64,000 bases of DNA from an uncultured archaeon (GCA_964586355.1 CAZPGO010000030.1:20421-84420); one strand, 5' to 3'. Positions 12,509 through 45,122 are shown, counted from the stretch's first letter. Notes: a model not told the origin generated them from the letters alone. Numbers and translations: made by a program.

Positions 12509-12511
12509 AAC

Positions 12512-13180
12512 ATGGAATTAAGAATAGGTGCAATAGAAAAATTTAGCACAATAGATTATCCTGACAAGATATCTTGTGCTATTTTTTTAAAAGGGTGTAA
12601 TTTTTTTTGTGGTTTTTGTTATAATAAACAACTAGTTTGTAAAGAACTATTGGACACCACTCCTGATCTTCCCCTAGAAGAACTTAAAGAATTTTTAAAC
12701 AAACGTGTTGGCTTAATTGATGCGGTTGTTGTTAGTGGTGGAGAACCAACAATATATGGCGATTCTCTTATTTCTTTTATTAGAGAGATAAAAACAAAAG
12801 GTTATCTAATAAAATTAGACACAAATGGTTCAAATCCAAAAGTATTAAAACAAATAATTTCTGAAAATTTGGTTGATTATATTGCTATGGATTTAAAAGA
12901 TTCTTTTGAAAATTATGATAAATATACTTTTGTTCCTGTTGAAAACATCAAAGAGTCTATTAATTTAATCCTAAATTCCAACATAGCTCATGAGTTTAGA
13001 GTTACCACTCACCCAGAACTAACTTTGGAGAATTTTAATATTTTATTAACTTATGTTCCTGAGCAAAAGGTTCTTGTCCAAGATTTCATGAACACCAATA
13101 CTATAAAAGAATATCCTGATGATTCTAAAACAATTTTTTCACAATTATCAAAAGAGGACAAAAGATATATTTTACGTTAA
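12512..13180 (+). CDS. nrdG: Anaerobic RNR activating enzyme NrdG (radical SAM).
   Basis: The CxxxCxxC cluster is CNFFCGFCYNKQ. It has the GGEP motif (VSGGEPTIY). It lies directly downstream of nrdD. Confidence 0.85.
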   Translation: MELRIGAIEKFSTIDYPDKISCAIFLKGCNFFCGFCYNKQLVCKELLDTTPDLPLEELKEFLNKRVGLIDAVVVSGGEPTIYGDSLISFIREIKTKGYLIKLDTNGSNPKVLKQIISENLVDYIAMDLKDSFENYDKYTFVPVENIKESINLILNSNIAHEFRVTTHPELTLENFNILLTYVPEQKVLVQDFMNTNTIKEYPDDSKTIFSQLSKEDKRYILR

Positions 13181-13204
13181 TATTTTTAAAAAGAGAGATT
13201 AATT

Positions 13205-25071: not shown

Positions 25072-26985
25072 ATGGCATCATATATAGATGAATTAAAATC
25101 TCAATTAAACAAAGCTAAAGAGAATAAACCAGAAGAAGTTAAATTAGAAAAAAAGCAGATGGATTGGTCTCAACCAGATAAACAAAAAACACAAGATCTT
25201 TCTTCTGAAAAATCTATAACTGAAGAAAATATTTCCAACACAAAAAATAATAATCAGTCTAAATCAGATAGTTTCTTAGAATTAGATTCTTTAAAAGATG
25301 CTTTTTCAAACAAATCTAATAAGCAACCATATTCTGATATTAATAAAGTCCAAACAGAGCAAAATAAAGATTCTGATTTAAATTTTAAGGAATCTCACCA
25401 AGAATCAAAACTAGCATCTAAGGAAGATTCTGTCTTTGATGAGAATATAAAAGAAACAATTGATAGATCTGTTAATTCTGGAAAAATAGATGTTGAAAAA
25501 ATAGAGACTAAAAAAGATAAACCTAATTTTGAAAAAGTATGGGCCGAAAATTCTCATTTAGTTACAAAGTATGGTGATGTTGAGATTTATAGAATTGAAA
25601 ATCAAGCACTTTATCATTATAAAATTCCAACCCCAAAACCAACAGCAAGTCAGAAATTAATAATTAATACCTTAAAGGAAGCAGCAACAAGATTAATTAC
25701 AATAGATCCTTATAAGATCAGAGATCCTTTACAAAGAAAAAACATTTATTATCAAAAAATTTTAGATATTTTAGAAAATGCACCTGAAATAAATGTTCCA
25801 AAGCACATGTTTGATTTTTATGCAGGGGCAGTTGTAAAAGAAATGGTTGGTTTTGGTCAAATTGAACCATTATTACAAGATGACAAGTTAGAAGAAATTA
25901 TGATCGTTGGTCCAAATAAACCAACTTATGTTTATCATAGAGATTATGGTATGATGACTAGTAATGTTGTATTTTATTCTGATGATGGGATCTTAGAAAT
26001 TATTGATAAAATTTCAAGAATCTTAGGAAGAAGAGTTGATATTTCTAATCCTTTATTAGATGCAAGACTTCCAGATGGTTCTAGAGTAAATGCAACAATT
26101 CATCCAGCATCCATTGATGGGGCAACAATCACTATTAGAAAATTTAAAGCTGACCCTTACACTATTGTAGATCTAATTAAATTTCGTACAATTAACTTAG
26201 AAGTTGCTGGATTTTTATGGTGTATTGTTGATGGGTTTGGGTCAAAACCAGCAAACATAGTTATATCTGGTGGAACAGGTTCAGGAAAAACTACTTTATT
26301 AAATGTTTTAGCAAACTTCATTCCAGATTCTAATCGTGTATTAACTATTGAAGACACTGCTGAGCTAAAATTACCTATAAAACAAGTAATTAGGTTTGAA
26401 GGACGACCACCTGGCTTAGAAGGTAAAGGTGAACTAACATTAGATGTTTTAGTAAAAAACAGTTTAAGAATGAGACCTGATAGAGTAATAGTTGGTGAAA
26501 TTAGACACACAGAAGCTTTATCTTTATTTACTGCTATGAATACCGGCCACGATGGTTGTATGGGTACAATTCACGCGAACTCTCCTAGAGAAACATTAGT
26601 AAGAATAACGTCCCCCCCAATGGAAGTGCCTTTGATGATGCTTGCCGGTCTAGATTTTATAGTTGTTCAGAAAAGATTAAACACTAGTAAAGGAATGGTA
26701 AGAAGAATAGTAAATATTGCTGAGATTAGTGGTGTTTTAGATAATGATCCAAAGGCAGATATTATTTTTAAATGGGATCCAAACACAGATTCTTTAAAAA
26801 GAACAGAGGCACCTATAAAGTTTTTTGAAATGATAAAAACATATACGAATTATACAGATCAGGATATAAAGAATATTTTGACAAAAAGAATAAGTATTTT
26901 AAATGATTTAGTTACTAAGAATATACATGCTCTTGACGATGTGTCAGAAACTATTCAACATGAGTATCTTGATAGAAAATCATAA
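25072..26985 (+). CDS. Type IV pilus / archaellum-family secretion ATPase (FlaI/TadA/VirB11 superfamily) with an N-terminal low-complexity extension of about 200 aa.
   Basis: Walker A is ISGGTGSGKTTLLNVLANFIP. The Asp box and His box are present (TIEDTAELKL and GHDGCMGTIHANSPRE). It immediately follows rfcS. Confidence 0.85.
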   Translation: MASYIDELKSQLNKAKENKPEEVKLEKKQMDWSQPDKQKTQDLSSEKSITEENISNTKNNNQSKSDSFLELDSLKDAFSNKSNKQPYSDINKVQTEQNKDSDLNFKESHQESKLASKEDSVFDENIKETIDRSVNSGKIDVEKIETKKDKPNFEKVWAENSHLVTKYGDVEIYRIENQALYHYKIPTPKPTASQKLIINTLKEAATRLITIDPYKIRDPLQRKNIYYQKILDILENAPEINVPKHMFDFYAGAVVKEMVGFGQIEPLLQDDKLEEIMIVGPNKPTYVYHRDYGMMTSNVVFYSDDGILEIIDKISRILGRRVDISNPLLDARLPDGSRVNATIHPASIDGATITIRKFKADPYTIVDLIKFRTINLEVAGFLWCIVDGFGSKPANIVISGGTGSGKTTLLNVLANFIPDSNRVLTIEDTAELKLPIKQVIRFEGRPPGLEGKGELTLDVLVKNSLRMRPDRVIVGEIRHTEALSLFTAMNTGHDGCMGTIHANSPRETLVRITSPPMEVPLMMLAGLDFIVVQKRLNTSKGMVRRIVNIAEISGVLDNDPKADIIFKWDPNTDSLKRTEAPIKFFEMIKTYTNYTDQDIKNILTKRISILNDLVTKNIHALDDVSETIQHEYLDRKS

Positions 26986-26996
26986 TTATAAATTGA

Positions 26997-28154
26997 TTGT
27001 TAATGACAGAAGTAAATGATAAACAATTAGAATTATTAAAAAAAGAGATGTCTAAATCTAAAGATAACAGCAGTAATATAGATCTAGATGCTGTTGATAG
27101 TATAGTAAACAAACTAAAACAAAAAGACAAATCTAAAGGCATAACAGGCCCAGTTTCAGAATCTCATTTAAAAGAATTAAGAGATATTATTTCTGAAGGA
27201 AAATTAACAAAATTAAATATAGACACTGAAGCAAAGCTAATGGAAGGTTCAGAATCTGTTATAGACAAAAAAATAGTGAAATTATATAAACCTTTTCAAG
27301 GATTTATAAACACAATTGTAAAATACATGCTTAAGCAAAGTATAGGCAAAAAGATTTCTTTTTATCTTTATTCTGCAAATATTAAAAGAACATTAGTACA
27401 ACATTTGGTTTTAGCAGTTTTGTTTTCTATGTTAGTTACTGTTTTTTTATCTTTTTTATTATTTATTATTTTAACTGTTATTAATCCATTATTTTTAATA
27501 GTTCTTCCATTTATTGCTTTAGCAATTTTTCTATTTTCTATTTTTATATTTTCATATATTTTGCCAATGCAGAAAGCAAAGCAAAGAGGAGCTCAAATAG
27601 ATACTGAATTGCCATATGCTTTAAGACACCTGTCTACCGAATTACAAGCAGGTATTGGATTATATAAAACTCTACAATCTATTGCAAAAAACGATTATGG
27701 TTTATTAGCTGACGAGCTTAGTAGAACAATAATTGAAATAGAGAACGGGACTGATACAAAAACAGCATTAAGACATACTGCATTAAGAAGTCAATCCAAA
27801 AATTTCAATATTGCTTTGTTTCATATAATAAGAACATTAAATACTGGTGGAAATTTAGCACAAAGTATTGATGGAGTTGCAGAAACAGTATCTTTTGATC
27901 TTTTAGAGTCTGCTAAACAGTTTGGAGAAAAAATGAATTTTTTTGGAATTATTTTTATATTTGTAGCTATTGTTTTGCCGGTGTTTTTAGCAGTTTTATC
28001 AGCAATAGCAAATGCGCCAATTGGTCAAGGTGGCGAATTGTTTTTACCAGGGGTTTTAAGTGCAGAATTATTAGGGGTTGTTTATTTAGTGGTACTTCCT
28101 GTAATTTTAGGATTTATATCCTTTTATATTAAAGTAATAGAACCAAAAACATAG
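26997..28154 (+). CDS. TadC/FlaJ-like (T2SS-F domain) pilus platform membrane protein, part 1.
   Basis: It is polytopic with T2SS-F-like cytoplasmic helical segments (LPYALRHLSTELQAGIGLYKTLQSIA). It is adjacent to the ATPase. Confidence 0.7.
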   Translation: MLMTEVNDKQLELLKKEMSKSKDNSSNIDLDAVDSIVNKLKQKDKSKGITGPVSESHLKELRDIISEGKLTKLNIDTEAKLMEGSESVIDKKIVKLYKPFQGFINTIVKYMLKQSIGKKISFYLYSANIKRTLVQHLVLAVLFSMLVTVFLSFLLFIILTVINPLFLIVLPFIALAIFLFSIFIFSYILPMQKAKQRGAQIDTELPYALRHLSTELQAGIGLYKTLQSIAKNDYGLLADELSRTIIEIENGTDTKTALRHTALRSQSKNFNIALFHIIRTLNTGGNLAQSIDGVAETVSFDLLESAKQFGEKMNFFGIIFIFVAIVLPVFLAVLSAIANAPIGQGGELFLPGVLSAELLGVVYLVVLPVILGFISFYIKVIEPKT

Positions 28155-28156
28155 AT

Positions 28157-29065
28157 GTGATTAAAGTGAAATTATTAGATAAATATCAAATATATCTTTA
28201 CTCAATAAAAATAAAAGTTCCTGCATTATATTGGATTGCTTCATTTTTTTTGATAGCTATAATATTTAGTGCCTTAATTTATTTAATTTTTAGAAGTTCT
28301 ATTTTTTCAATTTTGGTTTTTACGGTTGTTTTGGATTTGGGGGTGGGTACCCCTTTATTTTTATATACAAAACATATTGAAACAATTGAAAGATTTTGGC
28401 CAGATGCATTAAGATTGATTGCAGATACTATGAAAGCTGGAACTTCTTTTGATTTTGCATTAAGAGAAGTGGCATCAGCTGATTTTGGACCAGTTTCTGT
28501 AGAGTTTAATGAAGTAGTAAGAAGATTAGAGATGGGCGATACAACAAATGATGCATTAACTCATTTATCTATAAGAGTTGATTCTAAAATAATAAAAAGA
28601 ACAGTTACAATTATTCAAGAGTGTTTAAGAACTGGTGCTCAGTTAGCTGAAGTTTTAGATGAAATTGCAAATGATACTAAATATATGTACAGAGTAAAAG
28701 TAGAAAGACAAACAAAAACCCTTTTACAAACTATTTTTGTTTTTGCTGCAGGAGGAGTTATAGCACCTTTTATTTTTGGATTAACAAACGTTATTACACA
28801 GTTTTTAACAAATGTTGCAACAGCATCAGGCATTGCAAATGAAACTTCTATGGCTATTGCAATAGCAACACAGACAACTATAATTTTATTATTAGATATT
28901 TATGTTATGATTGAAGTTGCAGCAGCATCATTAATGATAAGTCTTATGAGAAATGGAAAAATAAGCGGTGCTTTTATTTATTTTCCTATAATGCTTACAG
29001 TAGCATATATTGTGTATTCTATATCTCAATTTATTTTAAATCAGATGTTAGTTACTATGGTATAA
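28157..29065 (+). CDS. TadC/FlaJ-like pilus platform membrane protein, part 2 (GTG start).
   Basis: A second T2SS-F-like repeat is present (WPDALRLIADTMKAGTSFDFALREVA). This gives a split two-gene arrangement. Confidence 0.65.
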   Translation: MIKVKLLDKYQIYLYSIKIKVPALYWIASFFLIAIIFSALIYLIFRSSIFSILVFTVVLDLGVGTPLFLYTKHIETIERFWPDALRLIADTMKAGTSFDFALREVASADFGPVSVEFNEVVRRLEMGDTTNDALTHLSIRVDSKIIKRTVTIIQECLRTGAQLAEVLDEIANDTKYMYRVKVERQTKTLLQTIFVFAAGGVIAPFIFGLTNVITQFLTNVATASGIANETSMAIAIATQTTIILLLDIYVMIEVAAASLMISLMRNGKISGAFIYFPIMLTVAYIVYSISQFILNQMLVTMV

Positions 29066-29085
29066 ATTTTTTAATGTGATAAAAT

Positions 29086-29277
29086 ATGAAAAAAACACAG
29101 AAACTAGAAAAAATAATTAAAGATCAAAAAGCACAGATCTCTTTAGAATTTTTATTAATTATGGGAGTTGTTGTTTTAATTTCATTAATTGTTGGTTTTT
29201 ATTTAAAACAGACTTCTGCAAATCAAGCAAATAAAATTACAGATTATCAGGATAAAAGTTATCAAGGTAATAACTAA
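29086..29277 (+). CDS. Small class-III-signal-peptide pilin-like protein (63 aa; DUF361/Epd-like, Q at +1).
   Basis: It has a basic N-terminus, then KAQ|ISLEF (K-2, A-1, Q+1, E+5), then a hydrophobic helix LLIMGVVVLISLIVGF. Confidence 0.6.
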   Translation: MKKTQKLEKIIKDQKAQISLEFLLIMGVVVLISLIVGFYLKQTSANQANKITDYQDKSYQGNN

Positions 29278-29324
29278 ATTGGTTTGTGGTTGTTTTTATT
29301 GGTTTAGTTTACAAAAAAGAAAAG

Positions 29325-29333
29325 TATATAAAT
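29325..29333 (+). promoter_or_regulatory. TATA box (TATATAAAT) for pilin paralog 1. The SD GGAGGG lies at 29378-29383 and the ATG at 29390.
   Basis: The A/T-rich octamer TATATAAA lies about 57 nt upstream of the ATG. The same TATATAAAT is found upstream of paralog 2. Confidence 0.45.
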
Positions 29334-29389
29334 ATATTAGTAATAATATTAATATATTATTTTTTTTATTAATTTATGGAGGGAAACTT

Positions 29390-29944
29390 ATGTTTAAAAA
29401 GAAAAAAGGACAAGGTGCTTTAGAGTATCTTTTGTTAATAGGTGGTGCGGTATTAATTACTGTTATTGTTATTGCATTATTGGTTGGTATGGGTGGTCAA
29501 AGTAGAGACACAGCTCAAGATCAAGCAAATAGAGTTCAATCAGCAACAGATGTACCACAACCAGCTCAAATAATTTCTGTTGACGCATCTTATAATGAAT
29601 GTACACAGAATGGAGATGCAACAATAACAGTAAATTGGAGAGCTTTAGGTGAAGGAGGAAGTCATAGGTTATATGTTTCTGATTCATCTAATAAAGATCT
29701 AAATATTACACATTTGCCAAATACTAGTTCTGGTGAGGGTAATGTGGGTCATGAAATAGGAAATAGTGGTGGTACTACTGGCCCAGATGATCTAATTATT
29801 TTAAATCCAAACAATTTAGCTGTTACTGATTTCAATATTGGAAATGTAAAAAAATGTGGTGATTCTTATTATGTAAGAATTGAAACAACAAAAAATAATC
29901 AAACAGTTGTTTCTGCTAAATACCAGTTTAGTTGGGTTAATTAA
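29390..29944 (+). CDS. Type IV pilin, major-pilin-like paralog 1 (184 aa). The ORF-track N-terminal extension from 29279 is probably not translated.
   Basis: MFKKKKGQ|GALEYLLLIGGAVLI is a class III signal peptide. There is an SD-ATG arrangement. The C-terminal CGDSYYVRIETTKNNQTVVSAKYQFSWVN is conserved among the paralogs. Confidence 0.8.
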   Translation: MFKKKKGQGALEYLLLIGGAVLITVIVIALLVGMGGQSRDTAQDQANRVQSATDVPQPAQIISVDASYNECTQNGDATITVNWRALGEGGSHRLYVSDSSNKDLNITHLPNTSSGEGNVGHEIGNSGGTTGPDDLIILNPNNLAVTDFNIGNVKKCGDSYYVRIETTKNNQTVVSAKYQFSWVN

Positions 29945-29950
29945 TTTTAA

Positions 29951-29966
29951 TCCTTCTTTTTTTTTC
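29951..29966 (+). terminator. Oligo-T tract (T9) directly after the pilin paralog 1 stop, the archaeal terminator type.
   Basis: The sequence is ccttcttttttttttc. Confidence 0.35.
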
Positions 29967-29985
29967 AAAAAATTAAATAGAAACA

Positions 29986-29994
29986 TATATAAAT
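29986..29994 (+). promoter_or_regulatory. TATA box (TATATAAAT) upstream of pilin paralog 2. The SD GGAGG lies at 30053-30057 and the ATG at 30065.
   Basis: It is the same element as upstream of paralog 1. Confidence 0.4.
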
Positions 29995-30064
29995 GTATTT
30001 TACTTAATATATATTAATGTTTTTTATAAAACAAAAATAAAATTTATTTAATGGAGGAAAATTT

Positions 30065-30544
30065 ATGTTTAAAAAGAAAAAAGGACAAGGTGCTTTAGAG
30101 TACCTTTTGTTAATCGGTGGTGCTGTGTTAATTGCAGTTATTGTAATTGCTTTATTAGTTGGTATGGGTGGTCAAAGTAGAGATACTGCTCAAGATCAAG
30201 CAAATAGAGTACAACAAGCAACAGATGTTCCACAACCAGCTCAAATAGTTTCTGTAAGAGCTCCATATGATGAATGTGGTGATGGAAATATTAGTGTTAG
30301 TTGGAGACCACTTGGCGAAGGCGGAAGTAATGAAATGGTTGTTTTAGATTCTAGCAATACTGAATTACAGATCGATGATGCAGGTACAAGAAAAGTACTT
30401 GATCCAAATGACTTAACTTTTGATGTTAATGTAACTTTAACTTCTGCTCATGAGTGTGGTGATTCTTACTATGTAAAAATAATTACAGAGAAGAACAATC
30501 AAGAAGTTACTTCATCAGCATATCAATTTAGTTGGATTGACTAA
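30065..30544 (+). CDS. Type IV pilin, paralog 2 (159 aa).
   Basis: The N-terminal 60 aa are near-identical to paralog 1 at both protein and DNA level. The C-terminal motif CGDSYYVKIITEKNNQEVTSSAYQFSWID is conserved. Confidence 0.8.
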   Translation: MFKKKKGQGALEYLLLIGGAVLIAVIVIALLVGMGGQSRDTAQDQANRVQQATDVPQPAQIVSVRAPYDECGDGNISVSWRPLGEGGSNEMVVLDSSNTELQIDDAGTRKVLDPNDLTFDVNVTLTSAHECGDSYYVKIITEKNNQEVTSSAYQFSWID

Positions 30545-30568
30545 GTTTAATTTTAAAAGGAATTGTAA

Positions 30569-31117
30569 TTGATCTTCACAAAAAAAAAAGGACAAGGTGC
30601 TTTAGAGTATCTTTTGCTAATAGGTGGTGCGGTATTAATTGCGGTGATTGTAATTGCTTTGTTAGTTGGTATGGGTGGTCAAAGTAGAGATTCTGCCCAA
30701 AATCAATCTAATAAAGTACAACAAGCATCAGATCTTCCGCAACCTGCTCAAATAGTATCAATAAATGCAGTTTATAGTAATTGTCCTAGTTTTGATGGAG
30801 ATCAAAACAAAACTTCTAAAATTTCTTTTACTTGGAGACCACTAGGAGAAGGGGGTACTTATCATTTATCTTTTTATGATTTTAGAGATCGCCAGTTAAA
30901 GATAATGTCTGCTGAGGGGCACACCATCGATAGTGATGGTGTTGATTCTTTAATTTTAGATCCAACAGACTTAACCTTAGATATAAATGTTTTAAGATTA
31001 AATACTACTGAAATTGTACATAATTGTGGAAATTCATATTATGCGCAAATAATTACTGAAAAAAATAATCAAAAAGTAAAATCATCAATTTTTGGTTTTA
31101 GTTGGATTCCAAATTAA
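30569..31117 (+). CDS. Type IV pilin, paralog 3 (182 aa; TTG start, 24-nt gap from paralog 2).
   Basis: MIFTKKKGQGALEYLLLIGGAVLIAVIVIALLVGMGGQSRD is conserved. The C-terminal motif is NCGNSYYAQIITEKNNQKVKSSIFGFSWIPN. Confidence 0.75.
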   Translation: MIFTKKKGQGALEYLLLIGGAVLIAVIVIALLVGMGGQSRDSAQNQSNKVQQASDLPQPAQIVSINAVYSNCPSFDGDQNKTSKISFTWRPLGEGGTYHLSFYDFRDRQLKIMSAEGHTIDSDGVDSLILDPTDLTLDINVLRLNTTEIVHNCGNSYYAQIITEKNNQKVKSSIFGFSWIPN

Positions 31118-31167
31118 TTTTTAAGAAAAAAATAATTTTTTAAAAATAATAAAAACAGGAGTTTATT

Positions 31168-31638
31168 TTGAAAAAAAATATTAATTCAAACAAAGGACAA
31201 GGTGCCTTAGAATATTTGCTAATTATCGGTGGTGTTTTAGTTATTGCTGTTGTTGTTATCTCATTAATTATGTCAACAGGCAGATCAAACACAGACAAAG
31301 TAAATGAATCAGAACAACAACATTCTCAATTAATAGATAGCACTATTATTCCACCAATGATTCTTAAAGTAAATTGTTTAGATCAAGGTGGTAATGACAC
31401 TAATATTATAGTAACTTACAACAGATCTACAACAAATGGGGTTGCTGAATATTGTTTAGTTTTAAACGAATCAATAACCACAAATTGTAAACCACCTGCA
31501 ACAACAGGCAATGTTGTTTTTTTTGATAATATTTCTGGATTAGCTACTGGAGTAAAACACAAAGTTTCTTTAGTTGCAAAAAGAGGAGATTATATGTCTC
31601 AACCTGCTTTACCAACACCAACTTGTGAGGTTGAATAA
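31168..31638 (+). CDS. Type IV pilin, divergent paralog 4 (156 aa, TTG start, 4 Cys).
   Basis: It has the same KGQ|GALEYLLIIGGVLVI signal peptide but an unrelated globular domain. The upstream SD-like sequence is caggag. Confidence 0.7.
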   Translation: MKKNINSNKGQGALEYLLIIGGVLVIAVVVISLIMSTGRSNTDKVNESEQQHSQLIDSTIIPPMILKVNCLDQGGNDTNIIVTYNRSTTNGVAEYCLVLNESITTNCKPPATTGNVVFFDNISGLATGVKHKVSLVAKRGDYMSQPALPTPTCEVE

Positions 31639-31654
31639 TTTTAATTTGGTAGCT

Positions 31655-31834
31655 ATGAAAAAATTAATTTTAGATCAAAGAGCTCAAGTATCTGTTGAAT
31701 ATCTAATCTTAATTGTTTTTGGAATGATGCTTGTAATCACAACAGGTATTATAGTAATTAATATCAATACTTTAGTAGCTGTTGCAAAATCTAAAATATT
31801 ATCTTATAGAGATAATATCATTGCTACTTTATAA
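31655..31834 (+). CDS. Small DUF361-like pilin (59 aa).
   Basis: The start is MKKLILDQRAQ|VSVEYLILIVFGMMLV. The ORF-track start at 31574 overlaps the paralog 4 terminus. Confidence 0.5.
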   Translation: MKKLILDQRAQVSVEYLILIVFGMMLVITTGIIVININTLVAVAKSKILSYRDNIIATL

Positions 31835-31845
31835 TTTAGAAAAAT

Positions 31846-32973
31846 ATGTTTTCTATTTTTAATTTTCTGATTTTTTTTGTTTTATTAATTTTTATTATTC
31901 TTTGTACTTATTTTGATTTAAAAAAAAGAATTATTCCTAATAAATTAATTTTTATTTTTTTAATACTTTTTTTATGTTTGTTTTTAATAAAACTGGTTTT
32001 GTTTTTTTCATTTTCTTTATTATATAATACTTTTTTGTCAGTAACAATAACTTTTTTTGTTTGTTATTTACTTTGGGAGTTTGGGGTGATTGCCGGAGGA
32101 GATCTAAAATTTTTTTTTGTAATTTCTATTTTACTGCCTTTTAATCTCTCTGTTTTTTCTAATTTTTTTAATATTGGTTTAAATCTTACTTTATTAAAAC
32201 ACCCTATTTTTTCCATTTTTTTATTGTTTTTTAGTTTTTTAATGATGTTACCCTATATTTTATTATTTTCTATTATTAAACTATTTACAAAAAAAAATCT
32301 TATATACTTAAAAAGATTTTTTTTTACAAAAAAGAATTTTGAAAATTTATTTTTAAGTACTCTTTCTTTATTTTTAGTTTCTATTATTGTAAGCTTTTTT
32401 GCTCTCTCTTTTAATTTGATTTTTTTGTTTATATTTTCTTTTATTTTGTTTAATTTAATTATGTTACTTAAAAATAAAAATCAACATTATTTTATTTGCA
32501 TTTTGATATTTTCTTTTTCTGTTTTAATTTTTTTAGAAATAATATTAAAACAATCTTTTTTTGTGTTTACAGATCTTGGTTTAATTTTTGTGATTAATAT
32601 ATCTGTCTCTTTTCTTTTGTTTTTAATAAAATTTACAAAAGAAAATATTTTAACAACCCCAATAAGTATTAAAAATTTACAAGAGGGGGTAGTTCTATCT
32701 AAAAATTATTATTTTAATAAACAAACAAACAAATTAACTGTTGAAAACACCAGTTTTGTTAATCAATTCAAAAGATTAGTTTCTGGAACCTATTATCTTA
32801 ACCTAAAAATAGATTCTAACAAAGCAGGGGGTCTAAAGAAAGAAGACATTGCTTTTTTAAATACTATGTATGAAAATAATTTAATAGGCAACTGGATTTA
32901 TGTTAAAAAAACATTGCCTTTTATGCCTGTTGTGTTAATAACTTTTATTGTTTTAAATTTTATAAAATTTTAA
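31846..32973 (+). CDS. Prepilin (class III signal) peptidase, PibD/FlaK/EppA-like A24 aspartic protease with an additional C-terminal domain.
   Basis: The first Asp context is YFDLKKRIIPN. The second catalytic Asp lies in IAGGDLKFFF, matching the GGGD-[VL]-K-L motif. It is polytopic and sits within the pilin cluster. Confidence 0.75.
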   Translation: MFSIFNFLIFFVLLIFIILCTYFDLKKRIIPNKLIFIFLILFLCLFLIKLVLFFSFSLLYNTFLSVTITFFVCYLLWEFGVIAGGDLKFFFVISILLPFNLSVFSNFFNIGLNLTLLKHPIFSIFLLFFSFLMMLPYILLFSIIKLFTKKNLIYLKRFFFTKKNFENLFLSTLSLFLVSIIVSFFALSFNLIFLFIFSFILFNLIMLLKNKNQHYFICILIFSFSVLIFLEIILKQSFFVFTDLGLIFVINISVSFLLFLIKFTKENILTTPISIKNLQEGVVLSKNYYFNKQTNKLTVENTSFVNQFKRLVSGTYYLNLKIDSNKAGGLKKEDIAFLNTMYENNLIGNWIYVKKTLPFMPVVLITFIVLNFIKF

Positions 32974-32986
32974 AGATGTGTAATTT

Positions 32987-33457
32987 ATGATAAAAAATAT
33001 TAAAGCACAAATTTCTGTAGAATTCATTATATTATTAGCTATATTTATGTTGTTTTTTCAAGCAACTATTTTGCCAACAATAGAGTTTTCTGAAAATATT
33101 ATAAAAGACACTCATAGCTTAAGTATAGCTAGTGATAATGTTTCTAGATTAATAACACATATAGAAAATTTTTCAAATAGTCCAGGGTATGGTAAAAGAA
33201 GTGTTTTTTTCTATCTTCCTGAGAATGCAACTATTACTTCTTGTGGTGGATCTGAGAATAACATAAAATATAATGTAAAAATATCCACTCAAAACCCAAT
33301 ACCCTTAACTTGTGATAGTACTGGTGACTGTAATTTTACAAAAAATATAGAAACCTCTTTAGAAATTAGTTGTTCTCCAAATAAGATAGGCCCTGGTTTT
33401 TCAGGAAATATTGTTTTAGAAAAAACAAGTATAGGGGAAATTATAATTAATGGTTAG
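32987..33457 (+). CDS. DUF361-like pilin or pilus-associated protein (156 aa, Cys-rich globular part).
   Basis: The N-terminal is MIKNIKAQ|ISVEFIILLAIFMLFF. There are 5 Cys in the C-terminal domain. Confidence 0.55.
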   Translation: MIKNIKAQISVEFIILLAIFMLFFQATILPTIEFSENIIKDTHSLSIASDNVSRLITHIENFSNSPGYGKRSVFFYLPENATITSCGGSENNIKYNVKISTQNPIPLTCDSTGDCNFTKNIETSLEISCSPNKIGPGFSGNIVLEKTSIGEIIING

Positions 33458-33460
33458 ATT

Positions 33461-33808
33461 ATGAATAAGCAAGGACAGATTAGTGTTGAGTTTATAATGA
33501 TATTAGGTTTGTTATTATTATTTTTGTTTTTTATATTAAACACAACACAAAAAGATCTAAATCAAAATAGAGCAATTCTATCTATAAAATCAAGAACTAT
33601 TGATTTGATTAATTTATCAGACTCTAGAGCTGTTCTTTTAAATATGGATTATTTAATTCAAGGTAGTTATTTAGATGTTACCATAAACATAAAAAAAAAC
33701 GGATCAACATTTACACTGGCTGTTTCTGATTATTTAGATGTAATTGCTTATATCAAAAGAACAACTGGTTTTAGGAATGTTAATTTAGATTTTGTTTATT
33801 TAACATAA
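33461..33808 (+). CDS. DUF361-like pilin (115 aa).
   Basis: The N-terminal is MNKQGQ|ISVEFIMILGLLLLFLFF. Confidence 0.55.
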   Translation: MNKQGQISVEFIMILGLLLLFLFFILNTTQKDLNQNRAILSIKSRTIDLINLSDSRAVLLNMDYLIQGSYLDVTINIKKNGSTFTLAVSDYLDVIAYIKRTTGFRNVNLDFVYLT

Positions 33809-39034: not shown

Positions 39035-40147
39035 ATGGCTAAAGATTATTATGATATTTTAGGTGTTAGTAAAGGTTCTTCAAAAGAAGAAATAAAATCA
39101 GCATATAAAAAACTAGCAAAAAAATATCATCCTGATGTTAATAAAGAAGAGGATTCTGAAGAGAAACTTAAAGAAATTACTCAAGCCTATTCAATTTTAA
39201 GTGATGATCAAAAAAGAGCACAGTATGATAGGTTTGGTGCAGATGCTTCTAATTATGGTTCCTCAGGATTTTCTAGCCGTGGATTTTCTTTTGATTTTTC
39301 TGATCTCTTTTCTGATTTTGACACAGATTTTTTTTCAAATTTTGGTGGGTTTAGAAGTTCCAAACGAGATGAGTGGCAAAACCTAGATATAAAGACCAGA
39401 ATAGATCTTGATTTTATTAGTGCTGCAAAAGGAACAAAGAAAACAATTAATTTAACCAAAGAAGTTATTTGTGATTTTTGTAATGGTACTGGTTCAAAAA
39501 GTGGAAAAAAAACAACCTGCCCAGAATGTGGGGGTAGAGGCAGCACAGTAACTAGAAAGCAAACCCCCTTTGGATTATTTGCTGTTCAACAAACCTGTCA
39601 GAGATGTCATGGAACAGGAAAAATTATTACTGATGAGTGTAAGAAGTGTTCTGGAAAAGGTTATGTAAAGCAAACCTCAACAATTAGTGTGGATATTCCT
39701 TCAGGTATTAATAATGGTGATTATCTAAGATTAAGGAATCAAGGAAATGAGAGAGTAGATAAGAAGGGCGATTTGTTTATATTAATTAGTGTAGCAAATC
39801 ACGAGTTTTTTAAAAGAAGTGGAGCAGATCTATATTGTGAAGTTCCTTTAACATATTCTGATTTGGTTTTAGGTACAAAAATAACCATTAAAGGAATACA
39901 AGACACTATTAACTTAAAAGTACCTTCTGAGACAACCCCAGGAACCCTTTTTAATGTAAGAGGTAAGGGTTTATCAGATCCAAATAAAAGAGGAGTTCAT
40001 GGATCTTTGTTTGTTAAGGTTACTTTGGCTATGCCTACTAATGTTAATAAGGATTATAAAGAGTTTTTATCTAAAATAAATTCTATTGATGATAAATATA
40101 CTAAGAAAAAAATACAACAAAAATTAAAAGAATATGTTTCTGTTTAA
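39035..40147 (+). CDS. dnaJ: Hsp40 co-chaperone DnaJ (type I, with a zinc-finger domain).
   Basis: The J-domain HPD is present (KYHPDVN). The G/F region is present. Four CxxCxGxG repeats are present (CDFCNGTG, CPECGGRG, CQRCHGTG, CKKCSGKG). Confidence 0.9.
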   Translation: MAKDYYDILGVSKGSSKEEIKSAYKKLAKKYHPDVNKEEDSEEKLKEITQAYSILSDDQKRAQYDRFGADASNYGSSGFSSRGFSFDFSDLFSDFDTDFFSNFGGFRSSKRDEWQNLDIKTRIDLDFISAAKGTKKTINLTKEVICDFCNGTGSKSGKKTTCPECGGRGSTVTRKQTPFGLFAVQQTCQRCHGTGKIITDECKKCSGKGYVKQTSTISVDIPSGINNGDYLRLRNQGNERVDKKGDLFILISVANHEFFKRSGADLYCEVPLTYSDLVLGTKITIKGIQDTINLKVPSETTPGTLFNVRGKGLSDPNKRGVHGSLFVKVTLAMPTNVNKDYKEFLSKINSIDDKYTKKKIQQKLKEYVSV

Positions 40148-43100
40148 AAAAAGTCTGATAAAGATCTTTGTTTTTTTTCTTCTTTATCTAAAAATAGACT
40201 GTCAATTTCTTCTTCACAAAGATTTATTCTTTGTAGTAGGTATGGTTTTAGATCGTACTCAATAATTATTTTTTTAGCTATTTCTAGATATTTTTTAATA
40301 GATCCTTTTGCAATTGTTAGTATAATGTTTCCTCCACAAGAGCAGGTTCCTGATAGAGGTATTCTTCTAAATTTTGCATTACATTTTACGCATCTTAATT
40401 TTTGTCTGGAAAAAGCTCTAGTGTTTCCAATAATATCTGGAAATAAATGATAATGTAGTAATCTTTCTAGGGCGTCTTTTTGATCAACAGCAATAAGTCT
40501 TTCTTGAAGTTTTGCTTGTTTTAGAACTTTATCGCTCATTGCTTTTATGGTAATATATGCACTTTGCTTTGGTCCTTCATCAAAGGAATTGGTATCATGT
40601 GTGAATTTTATGGAGTTGTATTGGTCTTTTGTTCCAAGTAATTTTCTAGCACTAATAATCCCTGGTATTTTGTCCGGATCTCCAAAGTTTTTGGCCATCT
40701 CGTAAAACTCGTAAGGATAACTGGTATTTGTTTCTATCTCGTGAGACTCATCATCAATCTCATAAGGGCTTAGGGTTGTTGTAAAAGCTATTGGTGCATC
40801 CATTCTACCGCCCCTACCAACACTTAGATAACTTTGAGAAAAGTTAAGTAGCCCATCTAATAGTAAAAGCATAGAATCCTGATCCCCATCAACATTTCTT
40901 CTTTTTGCAGTAATATAATAAGGATGTCCCCAACAAAGTTTTGCTTTAGAAAAACCAATGATTCTTCCAACAATTCCTGCTGATGTGTGTGGTGCAAGTC
41001 CAATTACATATTGTCCAATCAGGTCTTCTCTTGTTTTTGCATTATAATATTTATTTAACCCATAGAATTTTTCTAAAAGATCATCAATAAACCAACTAAC
41101 TCTTAAAAAATATTCTCCACAGTTTTCATCAACAATAATATCTTGTGGAAATATAGATGCTCTTTGGTTTTCGTCTTTTAGTTCTTTATCAAGATAATCT
41201 TTTTTATAACCTAATTCTTTAAATTTATCTAAAGACAAGTTAAGTTCTTTTGCTGACACTTGAGAGATGGTTGCATTTAGTGCTTCATATCTACAGGTGC
41301 CATCTCTAAAAACATATACTTCATGTTTTGCTCTAAGAATTCCTTTTTCTAATGGTTCTGCTATTCTTTTTGAGCTTACAAGTCCTTTTACTCCTTTTAG
41401 TGTTTGAGGTATTCCTACTTTTAGGTTTTTACTTGCTCTTTCTATTAATGAATCTAAATTTATTTTGTGATTAGTTTCAGGAATAGTTTCCTCTTTACAA
41501 ACCGGACAGACTTTTTCAAAAGTTTTTTTGCCGCATTTTGCGCAGCTTCTCATCTCATTTGCTTCTAACTGACATTCAAAGCAATAGTTATGATAAAGTA
41601 TTTTTTTACAGTTAGGGCAATAATAAGATCTAACTTCCACAGAATTGATTCCATATTCTCCAGCAGCAGCACGATCTGATTTTTTTGTGCTTGCTTTTAT
41701 TAGATCTCTATTGTTTCCAAAGCCTCTACCAATAGGGAAAAGAACATTTGGTTTTCCTGCCATTATTCTTTCGTGTGCTGCTTCTGGTCTGCCCATTCTT
41801 GTTCCTATATAGGTTCCTGATTTTTCTTTAATCTCTATTCCTGAAATTTGACTTAATATTTCTACTATTGGTTTCTCTTTTAATTCTTCAAAATTGAATT
41901 TTGTTAATGGATCTAAAGCATTTAGTGCTCCAACAGTTTTTAGAAAAGGATATGCTTGATCTTTATCTATAAAAATCTTATTCTCTTCTTCTAGGTATTT
42001 ATGCACTAAACCTATTTTTTCTAGTATTTTTTTTATTTCTTTATTATAATTTATTTTTATTCCTATTATGTTTTCAGTAGGTTTTGTAAGTTTAAAAAAA
42101 TCAATTTTTTCTAAAATTTCTTTTAGATCTGCCAAATGTTTGTTTTTTGTGCTTTCTACATCTCCAAAAAGTTTTTCTGAGGTTCTTATTTCTTTTATTA
42201 GGGTTTGTAGTTCTTCTATTGTTAGCAGATCATAATAAAATAAATATTTTGGAAATAATGGTAAGTTATATTTTAAGCTAATAGCAACAGCTGTATACGG
42301 ATCAGGATTTTTATAAAAATCATTACAGAACTCAAATGTTTTTTTATCTATTTTTTCTTTAATTAATAAATATTCTATTAATGACAACCACTCTTCTTCA
42401 ACAAAACCATTTTTCAACAAAGGGTGTCCACTTTTTCTAAAGTCTCCTATGTTTATTAAAAGATCTCCTAAAAACAAAACTTTTTCTATTTCTTCTCTAT
42501 ATTCTAAAGCTGTTTTTACATCTTTTATATAAATAACATCTTTATTTTTAAGTCTTACAATTGGGCCATCAATTGTAGAACAAGGGAAAAACTGTAAAGA
42601 TTTTCCTGGTCTTTCTATTCTTCCATGTGTGCCAACAGCAATAAATTCATCTAGAACATACATGGTTGAGGGATTGATCGCTTTTGCCATTAATCCAGTG
42701 TTTCTACCTTTTCCATATCTAAGCCTAAAACCACCAGGCACAAAAGGGTATCCAAAAACCGGTCTGCCAGCTGCTAGTCCTTCTAAATATTTTGTAGATG
42801 GTTTTAATTCAAAAGAACCTTCTGAAGTTTTTTCCACTTTTATTAATTTTTCTAACCAACTCCAATTAAGTCCCATCTTTTTACTGGTCTTAAGTATTTT
42901 CATCGCTCTTACATAAAGCCCATCAATTAAAACCAAACACATTGCTCCACGAATTCTGTTTGTTGGTATTGATTTTATATCTCTATTTACTATTATTTCT
43001 ACATTGCTATCTGGAAAACTATTTACACAGATAGCACAGTTTTCAATAATTATTTTCATTTCTTGTTCTGTTACTCTTTGTTGTCTTGCAACAATCTCGT

Positions 43101-43692
43101 CTTGATAGATTGATACTTCTTCAATTACTCTATCAACTATTTCTTTTGAAGGTTTAAATCTATCCAAATGTAATTTTTCTCTAGCAAGATCTGCAAGTAA
43201 CAAAGGAAGTGTTTGTGCATTACCTCCAGCTGCTCTGATAGGTCCTGCATAGTAAATATCAGCATATTTAGTTCCATCTTGGTTTTCTGAAATCTTAATC
43301 TCAGGAAGTCCATCTAAGGGGGATACTACAACACCTTCTGTTTCAATAATCAGTGCTGTTCTTATTGCTTGATCTAATCTTTTTTCAGGGTCTTCTATAT
43401 TTCCTAGTTTTTTATCAAGAATCAGGTGAAAAATATCAAGCATTACTTTGAATCTATCGTGAGAATGTTTTTCCCAAAGTTCATCATATACCTCTGCAAC
43501 ACCCTTAGGTCCAACCAACAGTTCTGTTTTTTCTGCAATTCCTGTTGCTGGTATAGATTCTATATCTTCACAAACATCTCTTTTTGTGGCTCTGGCTTTT
43601 TTTGCTAGATCTACAGTTAGAGTTACATCTTCATTTAGTTTTTTATAATATTCTTTAACTTCTTTGGTTGCAACTAATTTTTCTAAATTCAT
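40144..43692 (-). CDS. polC: DNA polymerase II (PolD) large subunit DP2. No intein.
   Basis: It is 1182 aa. The Cys clusters are CPNCKK...CFEC...CAKCGKK...CPVCK and CVKCNAKF...CSCGG. It is conserved throughout and overlaps the DP1 gene by 4 nt. Confidence 0.9.
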   Translation of the reverse strand: MNLEKLVATKEVKEYYKKLNEDVTLTVDLAKKARATKRDVCEDIESIPATGIAEKTELLVGPKGVAEVYDELWEKHSHDRFKVMLDIFHLILDKKLGNIEDPEKRLDQAIRTALIIETEGVVVSPLDGLPEIKISENQDGTKYADIYYAGPIRAAGGNAQTLPLLLADLAREKLHLDRFKPSKEIVDRVIEEVSIYQDEIVARQQRVTEQEMKIIIENCAICVNSFPDSNVEIIVNRDIKSIPTNRIRGAMCLVLIDGLYVRAMKILKTSKKMGLNWSWLEKLIKVEKTSEGSFELKPSTKYLEGLAAGRPVFGYPFVPGGFRLRYGKGRNTGLMAKAINPSTMYVLDEFIAVGTHGRIERPGKSLQFFPCSTIDGPIVRLKNKDVIYIKDVKTALEYREEIEKVLFLGDLLINIGDFRKSGHPLLKNGFVEEEWLSLIEYLLIKEKIDKKTFEFCNDFYKNPDPYTAVAISLKYNLPLFPKYLFYYDLLTIEELQTLIKEIRTSEKLFGDVESTKNKHLADLKEILEKIDFFKLTKPTENIIGIKINYNKEIKKILEKIGLVHKYLEEENKIFIDKDQAYPFLKTVGALNALDPLTKFNFEELKEKPIVEILSQISGIEIKEKSGTYIGTRMGRPEAAHERIMAGKPNVLFPIGRGFGNNRDLIKASTKKSDRAAAGEYGINSVEVRSYYCPNCKKILYHNYCFECQLEANEMRSCAKCGKKTFEKVCPVCKEETIPETNHKINLDSLIERASKNLKVGIPQTLKGVKGLVSSKRIAEPLEKGILRAKHEVYVFRDGTCRYEALNATISQVSAKELNLSLDKFKELGYKKDYLDKELKDENQRASIFPQDIIVDENCGEYFLRVSWFIDDLLEKFYGLNKYYNAKTREDLIGQYVIGLAPHTSAGIVGRIIGFSKAKLCWGHPYYITAKRRNVDGDQDSMLLLLDGLLNFSQSYLSVGRGGRMDAPIAFTTTLSPYEIDDESHEIETNTSYPYEFYEMAKNFGDPDKIPGIISARKLLGTKDQYNSIKFTHDTNSFDEGPKQSAYITIKAMSDKVLKQAKLQERLIAVDQKDALERLLHYHLFPDIIGNTRAFSRQKLRCVKCNAKFRRIPLSGTCSCGGNIILTIAKGSIKKYLEIAKKIIIEYDLKPYLLQRINLCEEEIDSLFLDKEEKKQRSLSDFF

Positions 43693-45122
43693 TTTCTATC
43701 CTTATAAAAATCTTTAACAATAATTTCTTGTGTTTTTAAATTAAATAAAATTACTTTTGATAACGTTGGTATATGCCCATTTTCTATTTGATAGCTAGTT
43801 ATTGATTGCCAACATGATGCAGCAATAAGATGTGTATGTTTGTATTTAGAAAAGGAGTGGTGGTGTATATGTCCACAAATAAAAACATCTGGAACCTCAG
43901 TAATTGTTAAAAAGTTTTTTTCAATAGGCATAAACATTTGTCTTTCCCCATATTGTGGCATAAGATCTCTTCTTTTTAGTAATTCTCTTAATGCATGATC
44001 AGGCCGGTCTGTTTTAACACCTTGTATTTCTCCAAAAATCCCATGTAAGGAATTCCCATGATACACTAAAAATAAAAGTCCTTCTAAATCTATCCAAGTA
44101 GGAGATCCTAACATATGTATGTTTTCTTTAGTGTATAACCTTGGCAAAAATTTATCACTAACCGCAGGTTGTGGATCTGAAAGTCTAACAGCATCATGAT
44201 TTCCTGGGCTTATAAATATTTCAATATCTTGTGGAATTTTTAGTATGTGTTCTTCAAATAGGCGATATTGTTCAAAGATGTCTGTTATTGCAAGTTCACT
44301 AAACTGTTTAGGATATATGCCAATACCATCTACAAGATCTCCAGCAACTATTAAATATTTTATTTTTGAAACTAGTTCTGTATCTTCACAGTTTTTATTA
44401 TTTAACCAATCTATAAAATCAATAAAATCATCTTCTAAAAAAAGATTACTGCCTACATGTGTATCTGCAATTATTGCAACATAACAATCATCATCAAGAT
44501 TTGTGTTTTTTTGTTCATATGGTATGTCTGGGAAATAATATTCTTTTACAATTAGCATATCTTTAGATAAAACACCACATCTAAACCCGATAACATTATC
44601 ATTTAACAACTGTTTTGCTTGAATAAGTTCTTCAGGAGTTTTACAAGTCATAATTAGATTTATTTTTCCTGTGGGATCATCAACTACTATAAGCATATTC
44701 CCGTTTTTGGTTATCCTTTTTTCATAAACCATTGCAATAATATCTACTTCTTTGTTTTTTATTTCTGTTTTTGCTTGTGCTATAGTAATTGGTTTAAAGT
44801 CTACTCTTTTTTTTATAATCCCAGAAAGTGTTTCATATTTATCTAAAAAAAGTTTTAAAAAATCTGGAACCGATCCTTGCGACAAATTTTTATTAGTAAC
44901 ATCATATTTTTCAAGAATATTAAAATTTTTATGATATTCTTTTTTATCTTCTATTTTACAGGTATTAAGAATTTTTTTAATATGTTCAGGAGTGATAAAC
45001 AGATCTTCTGTTGAAAGGCTATCTATTACTTTTTTATAATTATAAATATTTAGAAGTCTTAATGCTTCTTCAGTAATGATCAAATTTTTATTTTCTGCGT
45101 ATTTTAGTATTTTTTCATCCAT
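43689..45122 (-). CDS. polB: DNA polymerase II (PolD) small subunit DP1 (calcineurin-like phosphoesterase exonuclease).
   Basis: The metallophosphatase motifs are IIADTHVG, VAGDLVD, GNHD and GHIHH. It is 477 aa. Confidence 0.85.
   Translation of the reverse strand: MDEKILKYAENKNLIITEEALRLLNIYNYKKVIDSLSTEDLFITPEHIKKILNTCKIEDKKEYHKNFNILEKYDVTNKNLSQGSVPDFLKLFLDKYETLSGIIKKRVDFKPITIAQAKTEIKNKEVDIIAMVYEKRITKNGNMLIVVDDPTGKINLIMTCKTPEELIQAKQLLNDNVIGFRCGVLSKDMLIVKEYYFPDIPYEQKNTNLDDDCYVAIIADTHVGSNLFLEDDFIDFIDWLNNKNCEDTELVSKIKYLIVAGDLVDGIGIYPKQFSELAITDIFEQYRLFEEHILKIPQDIEIFISPGNHDAVRLSDPQPAVSDKFLPRLYTKENIHMLGSPTWIDLEGLLFLVYHGNSLHGIFGEIQGVKTDRPDHALRELLKRRDLMPQYGERQMFMPIEKNFLTITEVPDVFICGHIHHHSFSKYKHTHLIAASCWQSITSYQIENGHIPTLSKVILFNLKTQEIIVKDFYKDRK

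Follow-up and report, generated by a model that had tools for sequence, protein, structure and literature searches.

The window analysed here, a 64,000-nucleotide (nt) stretch of DNA from an uncultured archaeon (GCA_964586355.1 CAZPGO010000030.1:20421-84420), carried a type IV pilus locus in which three pilin genes, here called p1, p2 and p3, lay in tandem on the plus strand. The p1 gene (29390-29944) encoded 184 amino acids (aa), p2 (30065-30544) encoded 159 aa, and p3 (30569-31117), which started with TTG behind a weak Shine-Dalgarno sequence 24 nt after p2, encoded 182 aa. All three matched the PF04021 family (E = 7e-7, 4e-8 and 5e-8, respectively), as did a distant paralog with another Cys-containing head, p4 (31168-31638, plus strand, 156 aa, E = 2e-8); the scores of p1-p4 were 29-34 bits against a curated cut-off of 23.7. 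Thus, the three tandem pilin paralogs described in the original prediction, which was made from the sequence of this DNA, were found, and they lay within a pilus operon.

The surrounding genes formed an operon-like cluster (25072-32973, all on the plus strand) that was syntenic in relatives and combined a T2SSE gene, two T2SSF genes, the pilins and a Peptidase_A24+Arc_PepC gene. Namely, a pilus assembly ATPase of the T2SSE / FlaI-TadA-like type (25072-26985, PF00437, E = 6.5e-46) was followed by two T2SSF platform proteins, the first of them TadB-C-like (26997-28154, PF00482, E = 2.3e-15) and the second at 28157-29065 (PF00482, E = 1.5e-15). Directly after them came a headless class III signal pilin of only 63 aa, Flp/EpdE-like (29086-29277, PF04021, E = 6e-8), whose gene was kept in the syntenic loci of relatives. 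Downstream of p1-p4, a small pilin-like protein of 64 aa with a weak PF04021 match (31640-31834, E = 0.0045), also kept in syntenic loci, preceded the prepilin peptidase (31846-32973), an EppA-like protein that had an A24 domain and an archaeal C-terminal domain (PF01478, PF06819).

The host is, as far as its genes can tell, an AT-rich archaeon of the Iainarchaeota (Diapherotrites, DPANN). The window had a G+C content of 26% and encoded the archaeal markers RFC, PolD, TFIIE-alpha and aTrm56, and the nearest named relatives were metagenome-assembled genomes of Candidatus Iainarchaeum / 'ainarchaeum' and the complete genome of Candidatus Forterrea multitransposorum. Near-identical contigs were present in Joint Genome Institute (JGI) samples under contig names starting with ML8 and MLSed. 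An exact-sequence look-up returned no record for p2 of the window, nor for protein P0013, which was identical to p1.

The three genes shared both of their ends. A direct repeat of 234 nt, covering the ribosome-binding site and the 5' coding part, occurred at 29369-29602, 30044-30277 and 30551-30784, the second and third copies being 88% and 78% identical to the first. Within it we defined a constant N-block of 64 codons on the plus strand (p1 29390-29581, p2 30065-30256, p3 30569-30763) that encoded a 7-residue leader, a hydrophobic helix of ~30 residues and a helical linker of ~27 residues. Over these codons the nucleotide identity was 91% for p1-p2, 83% for p1-p3 and 87% for p2-p3, and synonymous differences outnumbered non-synonymous ones (13/4, 20/13 and 16/9, respectively). 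The leader and cleavage site read MFKKKKG/QGALEYLLLIGGAVLI, a class III signal peptide of the form KG/QGALEY (the slash marks the cut), and across residues 8-38 p2 and p3 were the same while p1 had one different residue. The near-identical 5' ends with mainly synonymous differences were therefore as first described, and they extended beyond the signal peptide through the helix and the linker.

At the 3' ends, a 90-nt repeat (29849-29938, 30449-30538 and 31019-31108) had 70-73% DNA identity. It lay in a conserved C-terminal block on the plus strand (p1 29849-29944, p2 30449-30544, p3 31019-31117), which read CGDSYY...KNNQ...FSW in p1 and had the general form CG[DN]SYY..I.T.KNNQ.V.S....FSW. The block was accompanied by an upstream Cys (C71, C71 and C72 in p1, p2 and p3), and in a family alignment of 100 sequences both Cys were at least 90% conserved. 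Here the original prediction was right about the block and its partner Cys, while its wording of the motif was approximate, since p1 has TTKNNQ and p3 has FGFSW. Its further claim that everything between the two ends was unrelated in sequence did not hold. The heads of p1-p3 could be aligned from end to end with 46-55% protein identity, they had the motifs C..(loop)..W-R-x-L-G-E-G-G, L-[DN]-P-x-[DN]-L and C-G-[DN]-S-Y-Y in common, and their differences in length were indels in loops.

Structure prediction agreed with a constant assembly helix that would carry a surface-exposed variable head. The AlphaFold2 model of p1, built on the 100-sequence alignment, had a mean predicted local distance difference test score (pLDDT) of 82 and placed a helix at residues 10-52 and, after it, a beta-sandwich with about nine strands, with one low-confidence loop at about residues 108-130, where blocks of ten residues had mean pLDDT values of 65-74. 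The p2 model (pLDDT 80) had the same fold, beta-sandwich included, and both models fit the 'lollipop' pilin fold, in which a beta-rich globular domain sits at the end of a long N-terminal alpha-helix. A Foldseek search of the PDB gave only weak Ig/FN3 matches, and a profile search of PDB sequences gave no match. The predicted head is an FN3-like beta-sandwich, probably pinned by the conserved Cys pair (C71-C156 in p1), which would form a disulfide. A search with the head alone found only 21 clusters among 1.84 billion representative proteins, and it is a narrow, unannotated family without a Pfam model. The same head (PAQI.SV...C...W...CGDSY...KNNQ) was also seen behind non-pilin N-termini, either a Sec-type signal or a membrane anchor, and in long pilins of 355-681 aa, where it was the first of several domains (proteins P0121, P0127, P0131, P0133 and P0135; loci L017/L118 and L019). 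Since it occurred in both of these settings, the head appears to act as a movable module.

We considered it likely that p1-p3 are paralogous subunits of one Epd/Tad-like archaeal type IV pilus, and that their mosaic of conserved ends and variable heads arose from constraint, fast evolution of the heads and occasional recombination. In this model, the leader would be cut at KG/Q, the N-terminal alpha-helix of ~45 residues would form the filament core and the FN3-like head would point outward. Because the helix was essentially the same in p1-p3, the three proteins are expected to fit the same filament lattice, and a filament could contain one or another of them or a mixture, with its surface differing accordingly. 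The mosaic would then have three layers: purifying selection on the helix, a trait of the whole family; fast change of the head loops and one exposed strand, including micro-hotspots that add or remove N-glycosylation sequons; and occasional homologous or unequal recombination at the conserved blocks, which would homogenise the 5' blocks, create hybrid genes and alter the content of the array. The third layer, recombination between tandem copies, is supported by comparative data from related contigs. Selection may have been driven by a need to alter the binding to hosts or surfaces, or to evade viruses that attach to pili.

The signals around the genes bear on how they are expressed. A putative promoter element of the B recognition element (BRE)/TATA type, AAAAGTATATAAATATATTA, was located upstream of p1 (29320-29339, plus strand), and a similar promoter-like element, GAAACATATATAAATGTATT, upstream of p2 (29980-29999, plus strand). 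Both belonged to the longer element GAAAnnTATATAAAT[GA]TATT, which lay ~60-75 nt upstream of each gene and which also preceded pilin genes in many relatives, as well as copies 1 and 2 of other arrays. The bare 9-mer TATATAAAT occurred 12 times in the window where 6.7 occurrences were expected, which is no significant enrichment, and it was dropped as a promoter signal in its own right; the promoter argument therefore rests on the longer conserved element. Both p1 and p2 had strong GGAGG ribosome-binding sites, and a run of nine T on the plus strand (29957-29965), 13 nt past the p1 stop codon, resembled an archaeal terminator. The p3 gene had its TTG start, whose context was kept in L090, L088 and L089 (L numbers denote fetched loci), a partial Shine-Dalgarno sequence and no element of the GAAAnnTATATAAAT type. 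Co-transcription of p3 with p2 is plausible because of the 24-nt gap and the missing element. Thus, as had been proposed, transcription of p1 and of p2 seems to start at separate promoters, and p3, whose translation signals are weaker, seems to be reached by read-through from p2.

Two calls of start codons needed correction. A mechanical open reading frame (ORF), and the JGI call in L001 (222 aa), pushed the p1 start upstream to a TTG (29279-29389). The true start of p1 is, on the evidence of the GGAGG in front of it and its conservation among paralogs and orthologs, the ATG at 29390. In p3, the leader codons contained a homopolymer of ten A (30580-30589, plus strand). In L003 (JGI 3300001533, positions 535-560) this tract was A13, through a C to A change plus an extra A, which left the TTG out of frame and an in-frame TGA upstream. 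The A13 tract was present in a single contig and can be explained by slipped-strand phase variation or by a homopolymer error. A '167-aa variant' of p3 in L003 was rejected as a new head since it was the same gene with a later start call owing to A13.

The locus likely belongs to the Epd-like 'clade 1 / System 1' pili, judging from gene content and processing sites. Such loci have two platform genes and one ATPase (PMC4858521), and System 1 has been reported in methanogens and some DPANN (preprint 10.64898/2026.04.22.720090); two platform genes also occur in many clade 2 euryarchaeal loci (PMC4858521). The best NCBIfam match of the peptidase was EppA, over the full length (E = 3e-11), at 43 bits against a cut-off of 450, and the ATPase matched FlaI/TadA-type NCBIfam models below their curated cut-offs. 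Gln was at position +1 throughout: KG/QG in p1-p4, and KA/QI, RA/QV, KA/QI and QG/QI in the small and minor pilins. EppA substrates have the processing sites KGQV, KGQI, KGQL and RAQI, which also place Gln at +1 (PMC4371748). The Epd system of Methanococcus maripaludis is similar in having two platform genes, one ATPase, KGQ pilins and several pilin genes, and it has a dedicated EppA-type peptidase, to which the EppA-like protein of the window would correspond. It differs in that the peptidase and ATPase of the window matched these families below curated cut-offs, and in that its major pilin is short, headless and encoded elsewhere, whereas the window had three headed paralogs inside the locus, with promoter-like elements at p1 and p2.

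This last difference leads to another division of labour, in which p1-p3 would be low-copy minor or tip pilins (adhesins) on a filament of the 63-aa Flp/EpdE-like protein, and their diversity would reflect ligand specificity. Epd-type (clade 1) major pilins are small (~70 aa) and have no globular head (PMC4858521; 10.64898/2026.04.22.720090), and a headless class III signal protein is encoded directly after the platform genes, so that it is a possible alternative candidate for the major pilin. However, it was p1 and p2 that had the dedicated promoter-like elements and the strong GGAGG, together with the T-run after p1, which are typical of highly expressed structural genes, while the 63-aa gene lacked a promoter element of its own. 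Moreover, the helix of p1-p3 was the most conserved pilin N-terminus across the phylum. We therefore regard a minor or tip role for p1-p3 as possible but on the whole unlikely.

How much of the mosaic can be explained by selection alone? The N-terminus QGALEYLLLIGGAVLIAVIVIALLVGMGGQS / QGALEYLLLIGGAVLI.VIVIALLVGMGGQS was invariant in 32 homologs that were 45-80% identical overall, and across the pilin family the invariant N-terminal stretch comprised 30-36 residues. The first 90 nt of the mature protein were 90-91% identical among p1-p3 and 83-90% identical to single-copy genes of other genera, so that in this stretch p1-p3 were about as close to other genera as to one another. Likewise, the proportion of synonymous differences (pS) in the N-block was 0.31-0.43 among the window paralogs, which overlaps the 0.38-0.62 found against other genera and lies clearly below the 0.52-0.69 found against L004, the nearest single-copy relative. 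The ratio of non-synonymous to synonymous divergence (dN/dS) of the first 64 codons against the sister species was 0.02-0.04. These comparisons showed extreme purifying selection on the helix as a family-wide trait, and together with AT-biased codon use it explains most of the 5' identity. The original prediction had treated this identity as a substrate for conversion between copies; purifying selection across the family proved to be its main source, while recombination between copies did find support elsewhere in the family.

As a separate observation, the N-terminus QGALEYLLLIGGAVLIA was common to Iainarchaeota pilins with unrelated tails (L036, L042, L053, L063, L068, L075, L078, L081 and L083). 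The tails ranged from headless pilins of 55-62 aa, three of them in tandem in L083, to proteins of 270-435 aa, and L036 had a Cys-rich pilin of 96 aa in two tandem copies that were 100% identical.

Constraint could in principle account for the whole pattern: the duplications would be old, the helix and the C-terminal strands would be under strong purifying selection, the loops under relaxed or positive selection, and no recombination would be needed. The invariant helix and the overlapping pS values fit this explanation, as does the N-block of p3, which followed orthology with 13 differences to its ortholog in the sister species and 21-30 to its paralogs. The array recurred as p1'-p2'-p3'-p4' in the sister species (L090; L087 for the machinery), which places the triplication before the species split, and head identity to the sister-species orthologs was 78% for p1, 70% for p2 and 88% for p3, compared with 46-55% among paralogs. 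However, the N-blocks of p1 and p2 were intermixed between the two species, p2 of the window being 12 nt away from p1' and also 12 nt from p2' of L090. Synonymous divergence (dS, Nei-Gojobori) among the paralogs was 0.37-0.67 in the N-block and 1.6-2.3, that is, saturated, in the well-aligned C-terminal block; the p1-p2 value of 0.37 was near the 0.30-0.49 of ortholog N-blocks.

A further discrepancy came from a related lineage in which three genomes (L108, L115 and L119) each had two paralogs, A and B, whose N-blocks were compared over 171 nt. Their heads grouped by ortholog (A-A 49-63% and B-B 62-73% identity, versus 41-48% for A-B), yet their N-blocks grouped by genome: A and B differed by 10, 6 and 19 nt within the respective genomes, and orthologous N-blocks of L119 differed from those of L108/L115 by 26-33 nt.

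Moreover, two contigs of the sister species contained hybrid genes with sharp breakpoints. L088 (886 nt) led from the 3' end of p2' into the start of p3'. As far as nt 703, 134 of its 146 informative sites matched p3'; past this point all 26 sites matched p1', and the contig then continued into the p1-p2 intergenic region (Fisher P = 6e-22). It also had a p1-like tract at nt 371-413 inside the p3 gene, and its structure is that expected from an unequal p3/p1 crossover plus a short conversion. In L089 (638 nt), the 3' end of p2' was succeeded by the intergenic region and N-block of p3', which reached to about nt 337, and these by a p2-type head of another allele (P = 1e-13). Chimeric assembly is unlikely for both contigs, since the exact runs common to the parental genes were at most 29 nt and the assembly k given in the contig names was 141 for L088 and 119 for L089. 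A third hybrid-looking protein, P0005, had a slot-3 start on a p2 body. Copy number varied as well: L004, L007, L009 and L010 had a single gene, and at least ten other lineages had two or three. A population of Diapherotrites has been described as undergoing homologous recombination (PMC5905446). The grouping by genome, the intermixed p1/p2 blocks, the contrast in dS and the hybrid breakpoints make constraint alone an improbable explanation. The recombination between copies that had been proposed is thus supported by the hybrid contigs and by the related lineage, and the events look like rare unequal crossovers or conversions that were fixed in lineages, not like high-frequency switching.

The second layer of our preferred explanation, fast change in the heads, was visible at two scales. 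Against the sister species, dN/dS of the heads was 0.29 for p1, 0.38 for p2 and 0.18 for p3, compared with 0.04-0.11 for the assembly machinery. At the strain level, the window and L001 differed at 27 columns in an alignment of 20,480 nt, and 24 of the 27 sat in two patches totalling 79 nt (binomial P ~3e-55), leaving 3 elsewhere. The p1 patch (29711-29775, plus strand; aa 108-129, in the low-confidence surface loop) held 19 of these columns, namely 16 substitutions and a 3-nt indel in 65 nt. The p2 patch (30422-30435, plus strand) held the other five as substitutions in 14 nt, all of them non-synonymous (D120N, N122R and T124D); they hit every other residue, with D120 and N122 belonging to the predicted strand 118-123 and T124 directly following it. 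The 16 substitutions of p1 were at codon positions 1-2 throughout, and the lone third-position change, in p2, shared its codon with a second-position change. With no third-position change standing alone, all 21 substitutions read as non-synonymous, where 25% synonymous would be expected (P = 0.002). These comparisons showed fast, mostly non-synonymous change in surface loops of the heads and in one strand that is predicted to be exposed.

The other allele was found in six contigs, which came from four JGI samples (L001, L002, L003, L005, L006, p1 of L005/L006). The window allele had the sequons N111-T-S in p1 (29720-29728) and N122-V-T in p2 (30428-30436), both of which were missing from the six-contig allele. 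Neither patch allele was shared with the sister species (L169, L087, L090 and L103 all differed), where the loop was hypervariable too. Among other pairs of close strains, L004/L008 and L096/L097 had a modest excess of changes in the pilin head and L009/L007 had none, so that the extreme hotspot was specific to the population of the window.

Possible sources of the patches were sought directly. A blastn-short search of the window and the 169 fetched loci with either patch allele returned only the alleles themselves. In its first half, the L001 allele codes for IDSDGV as p3 does, but p3 was rejected as a direct donor because the Ser codons differ (TCT vs AGT). A viral origin was also discarded, as IMG/VR contained neither relatives nor a match to the patches. 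The reading that we prefer is short-tract recombination with divergent alleles of the population, kept by diversifying selection.

A more elaborate possibility is that the patches are not ordinary mutation plus selection but the footprint of templated or targeted diversification of the pilin loops, for example by conversion of mini-cassettes from donors elsewhere in the genome or population or by a remote mutagenic element. The switching of N-glycosylation sites and the poly-A slippage at the start of p3 could be linked to such diversification, which, if true, would be a true surface-variation system in Archaea. We consider it quite improbable.

A programmed system of antigenic or phase variation like pilE/pilS of Neisseria, with one expressed copy to which the others donate mini-cassettes at high frequency, is very unlikely. 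The p1-like tract inside the p3 gene of L088, the dense, templated-looking patches between near-identical strains, the weak TTG start of p3 and its A10 tract, which was A13 and out of frame in one contig, could all be read in its favour. The Neisseria system also resembles the array in its constant N-terminal assembly helix, its variable head with a Cys pair, its conserved flanking blocks and, possibly, its short recombination tracts. However, the array had no silent, promoterless, 5'-truncated copies: all three genes were complete with leader, start codon and ribosome-binding site, two had a conserved promoter-like element, and repeat searches found no partial pilin copies in the 64-kb window. 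Gene order and orthology were kept across species, with heads 70-88% identical to the sister-species orthologs and dN/dS below 0.4. The six same-population contigs from four JGI samples had an identical array where they covered it, and no donor of a patch was found in the window or the fetched loci. The Neisseria pilin head is, moreover, a bacterial alpha-beta roll, whereas the head predicted here is archaeal and FN3-like. The 'cassette-like' diversification of the original prediction was therefore given up: what is seen is diversification of expressed paralogs by ordinary evolution, not programmed switching from silent cassettes.

Diversity-generating retroelements (DGRs) are common and enriched in DPANN genomes. 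Although this enrichment, the lack of synonymous changes among the 21 patch substitutions and the restriction of the p1 changes to codon positions 1-2 would suit a DGR or another targeted mutator acting on the pilin head, we judged it extremely unlikely, because there was no reverse transcriptase among 40 scanned ORFs, mostly the larger ORFs of the 64-kb window, and no template-repeat copy of either patch in that window, and because the alleles differed by a 3-nt indel, many adenines within the patch were common to both alleles (as read off the allele sequences) and the patches lay in the middle of the genes and not at the 3' end.

Several points weigh against the explanation that we favour, p1-p3 as alternative or mixed subunits of one pilus shaped by constraint, fast heads and occasional recombination. 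The three genes of the window were canonical, and their N-block pS was just modestly below the values for other genera, so that any conversion in the lineage of the window is neither recent nor strongly evident. The hybrids came from two short metagenome contigs of the sister species (886 and 638 nt) plus P0005, and the six contigs belonging to the same population as the window, which came from four JGI samples, showed no rearrangement where they covered the array. The case for p1-p3 as major subunits comes from their apparently dedicated promoters and N-terminal conservation, and the 63-aa headless pilin (29086-29277) could instead be the major subunit by analogy with Methanococcus Epd pili. 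Finally, 16 substitutions and an indel in 65 nt, against 3 differences outside the patches in the other ~20 kb, would be hard to produce by point mutation alone.

Among known systems, the six PilA pilins of Haloferax volcanii (PilA1-PilA6) would be the closest functional analogy for p1-p3, without implying membership. They too are several paralogs with a near-identical hydrophobic N-terminal domain and divergent C-terminal parts, and each of them can build a pilus while adhesion properties differ (Esquivel et al. 2013; reviewed in PMC4371748). Homology, however, ends at the class III signal: p1-p4 matched PF04021 alone and not the PilA family (arCOG02416). The Haloferax genes are dispersed and served by the PibD peptidase, whereas those of the window are tandem and accompanied by an EppA-like peptidase, and no FN3-like head with a Cys pair has been described for PilA. 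To our knowledge, no recombination among Haloferax pilA paralogs has been reported. Tandem archaellins (FlaA/FlaB) are comparable as tandemly duplicated subunits of a type IV filament in which the N-terminal helix is conserved and the beta-rich outer domain varies, but the pilin locus lacked the archaellum accessory genes (FlaC-H, FlaX) and had an EppA-like peptidase, Gln at +1 and another head fold and family. Archaeal pilus systems are known to keep several major-pilin paralogs, and archaellins have been called 'prone to duplications' (PMC4858521). A bacterial parallel is the lpl array of Staphylococcus aureus, where tandem paralogs of a surface protein recombine at a conserved block within the genes, so that the variable parts on either side are shuffled and strains differ in the composition of the array (Tsuru and Kobayashi 2008, PMC2568036). 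The lpl proteins differ from the pilins in being lipoproteins with a central conserved block in a bacterial genomic island, while the pilin array has a 5' and a 3' block.

DPANN archaea are tiny and mostly uncultivated, and many depend on cell contact. Pili are prime candidates for mediating such contact and for virus attachment, and the locus offers a concrete, testable picture of pilus-surface variation in a DPANN organism, in which a helix invariant across the phylum, an uncharacterised head family, hotspots that would toggle sequons and recombining expressed tandem paralogs are combined. A constant scaffold with a variable head and multiple paralogs is already known from bacterial and archaeal type IV filaments. 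The value of the locus thus lies in a well-documented fresh example of an archaeal type IV pilin paralog family and not in a new concept, with the micro-hotspots and the hybrid genes as the features that stand out. It also shows that near-identical 5' ends of pilin genes need an outgroup before they are read as gene conversion, because purifying selection alone yields most of the signal.

The distant paralog p4 was 25% identical to p1 and 92% identical to its ortholog in the sister species. It had a p1-like N-terminus in front of a different head with four Cys and five N-glycosylation sequons, and it was single in every syntenic locus, even in loci with one gene of the p1-p3 type. Beyond the peptidase gene, two minor-pilin-like genes followed on the plus strand (32987-33457 and 33461-33808), which had weak class III signal or TadE matches and the N-terminus Q-I-S-V-E-F in both.

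No mobile-element genes were seen adjoining the pilin array among the scanned ORFs of the window. A tyrosine recombinase of the XerC/D-like type was encoded at 9175-10005 on the minus strand and, like the ribonucleotide reductases and PolD listed below, counts as a housekeeping gene. Homologs of MutL (633-2348) and MutS (2352-4856), also on the minus strand, adjoined a tRNA cluster; mismatch repair by these proteins would restrict recombination where repeats have diverged, as the pilin blocks have. Elsewhere, the window encoded an anaerobic (NrdD) ribonucleotide reductase with its activase and a second ribonucleotide reductase (10704-15250, plus strand), as well as the PolD subunits DP2/DP1 (40144-45122, minus strand).

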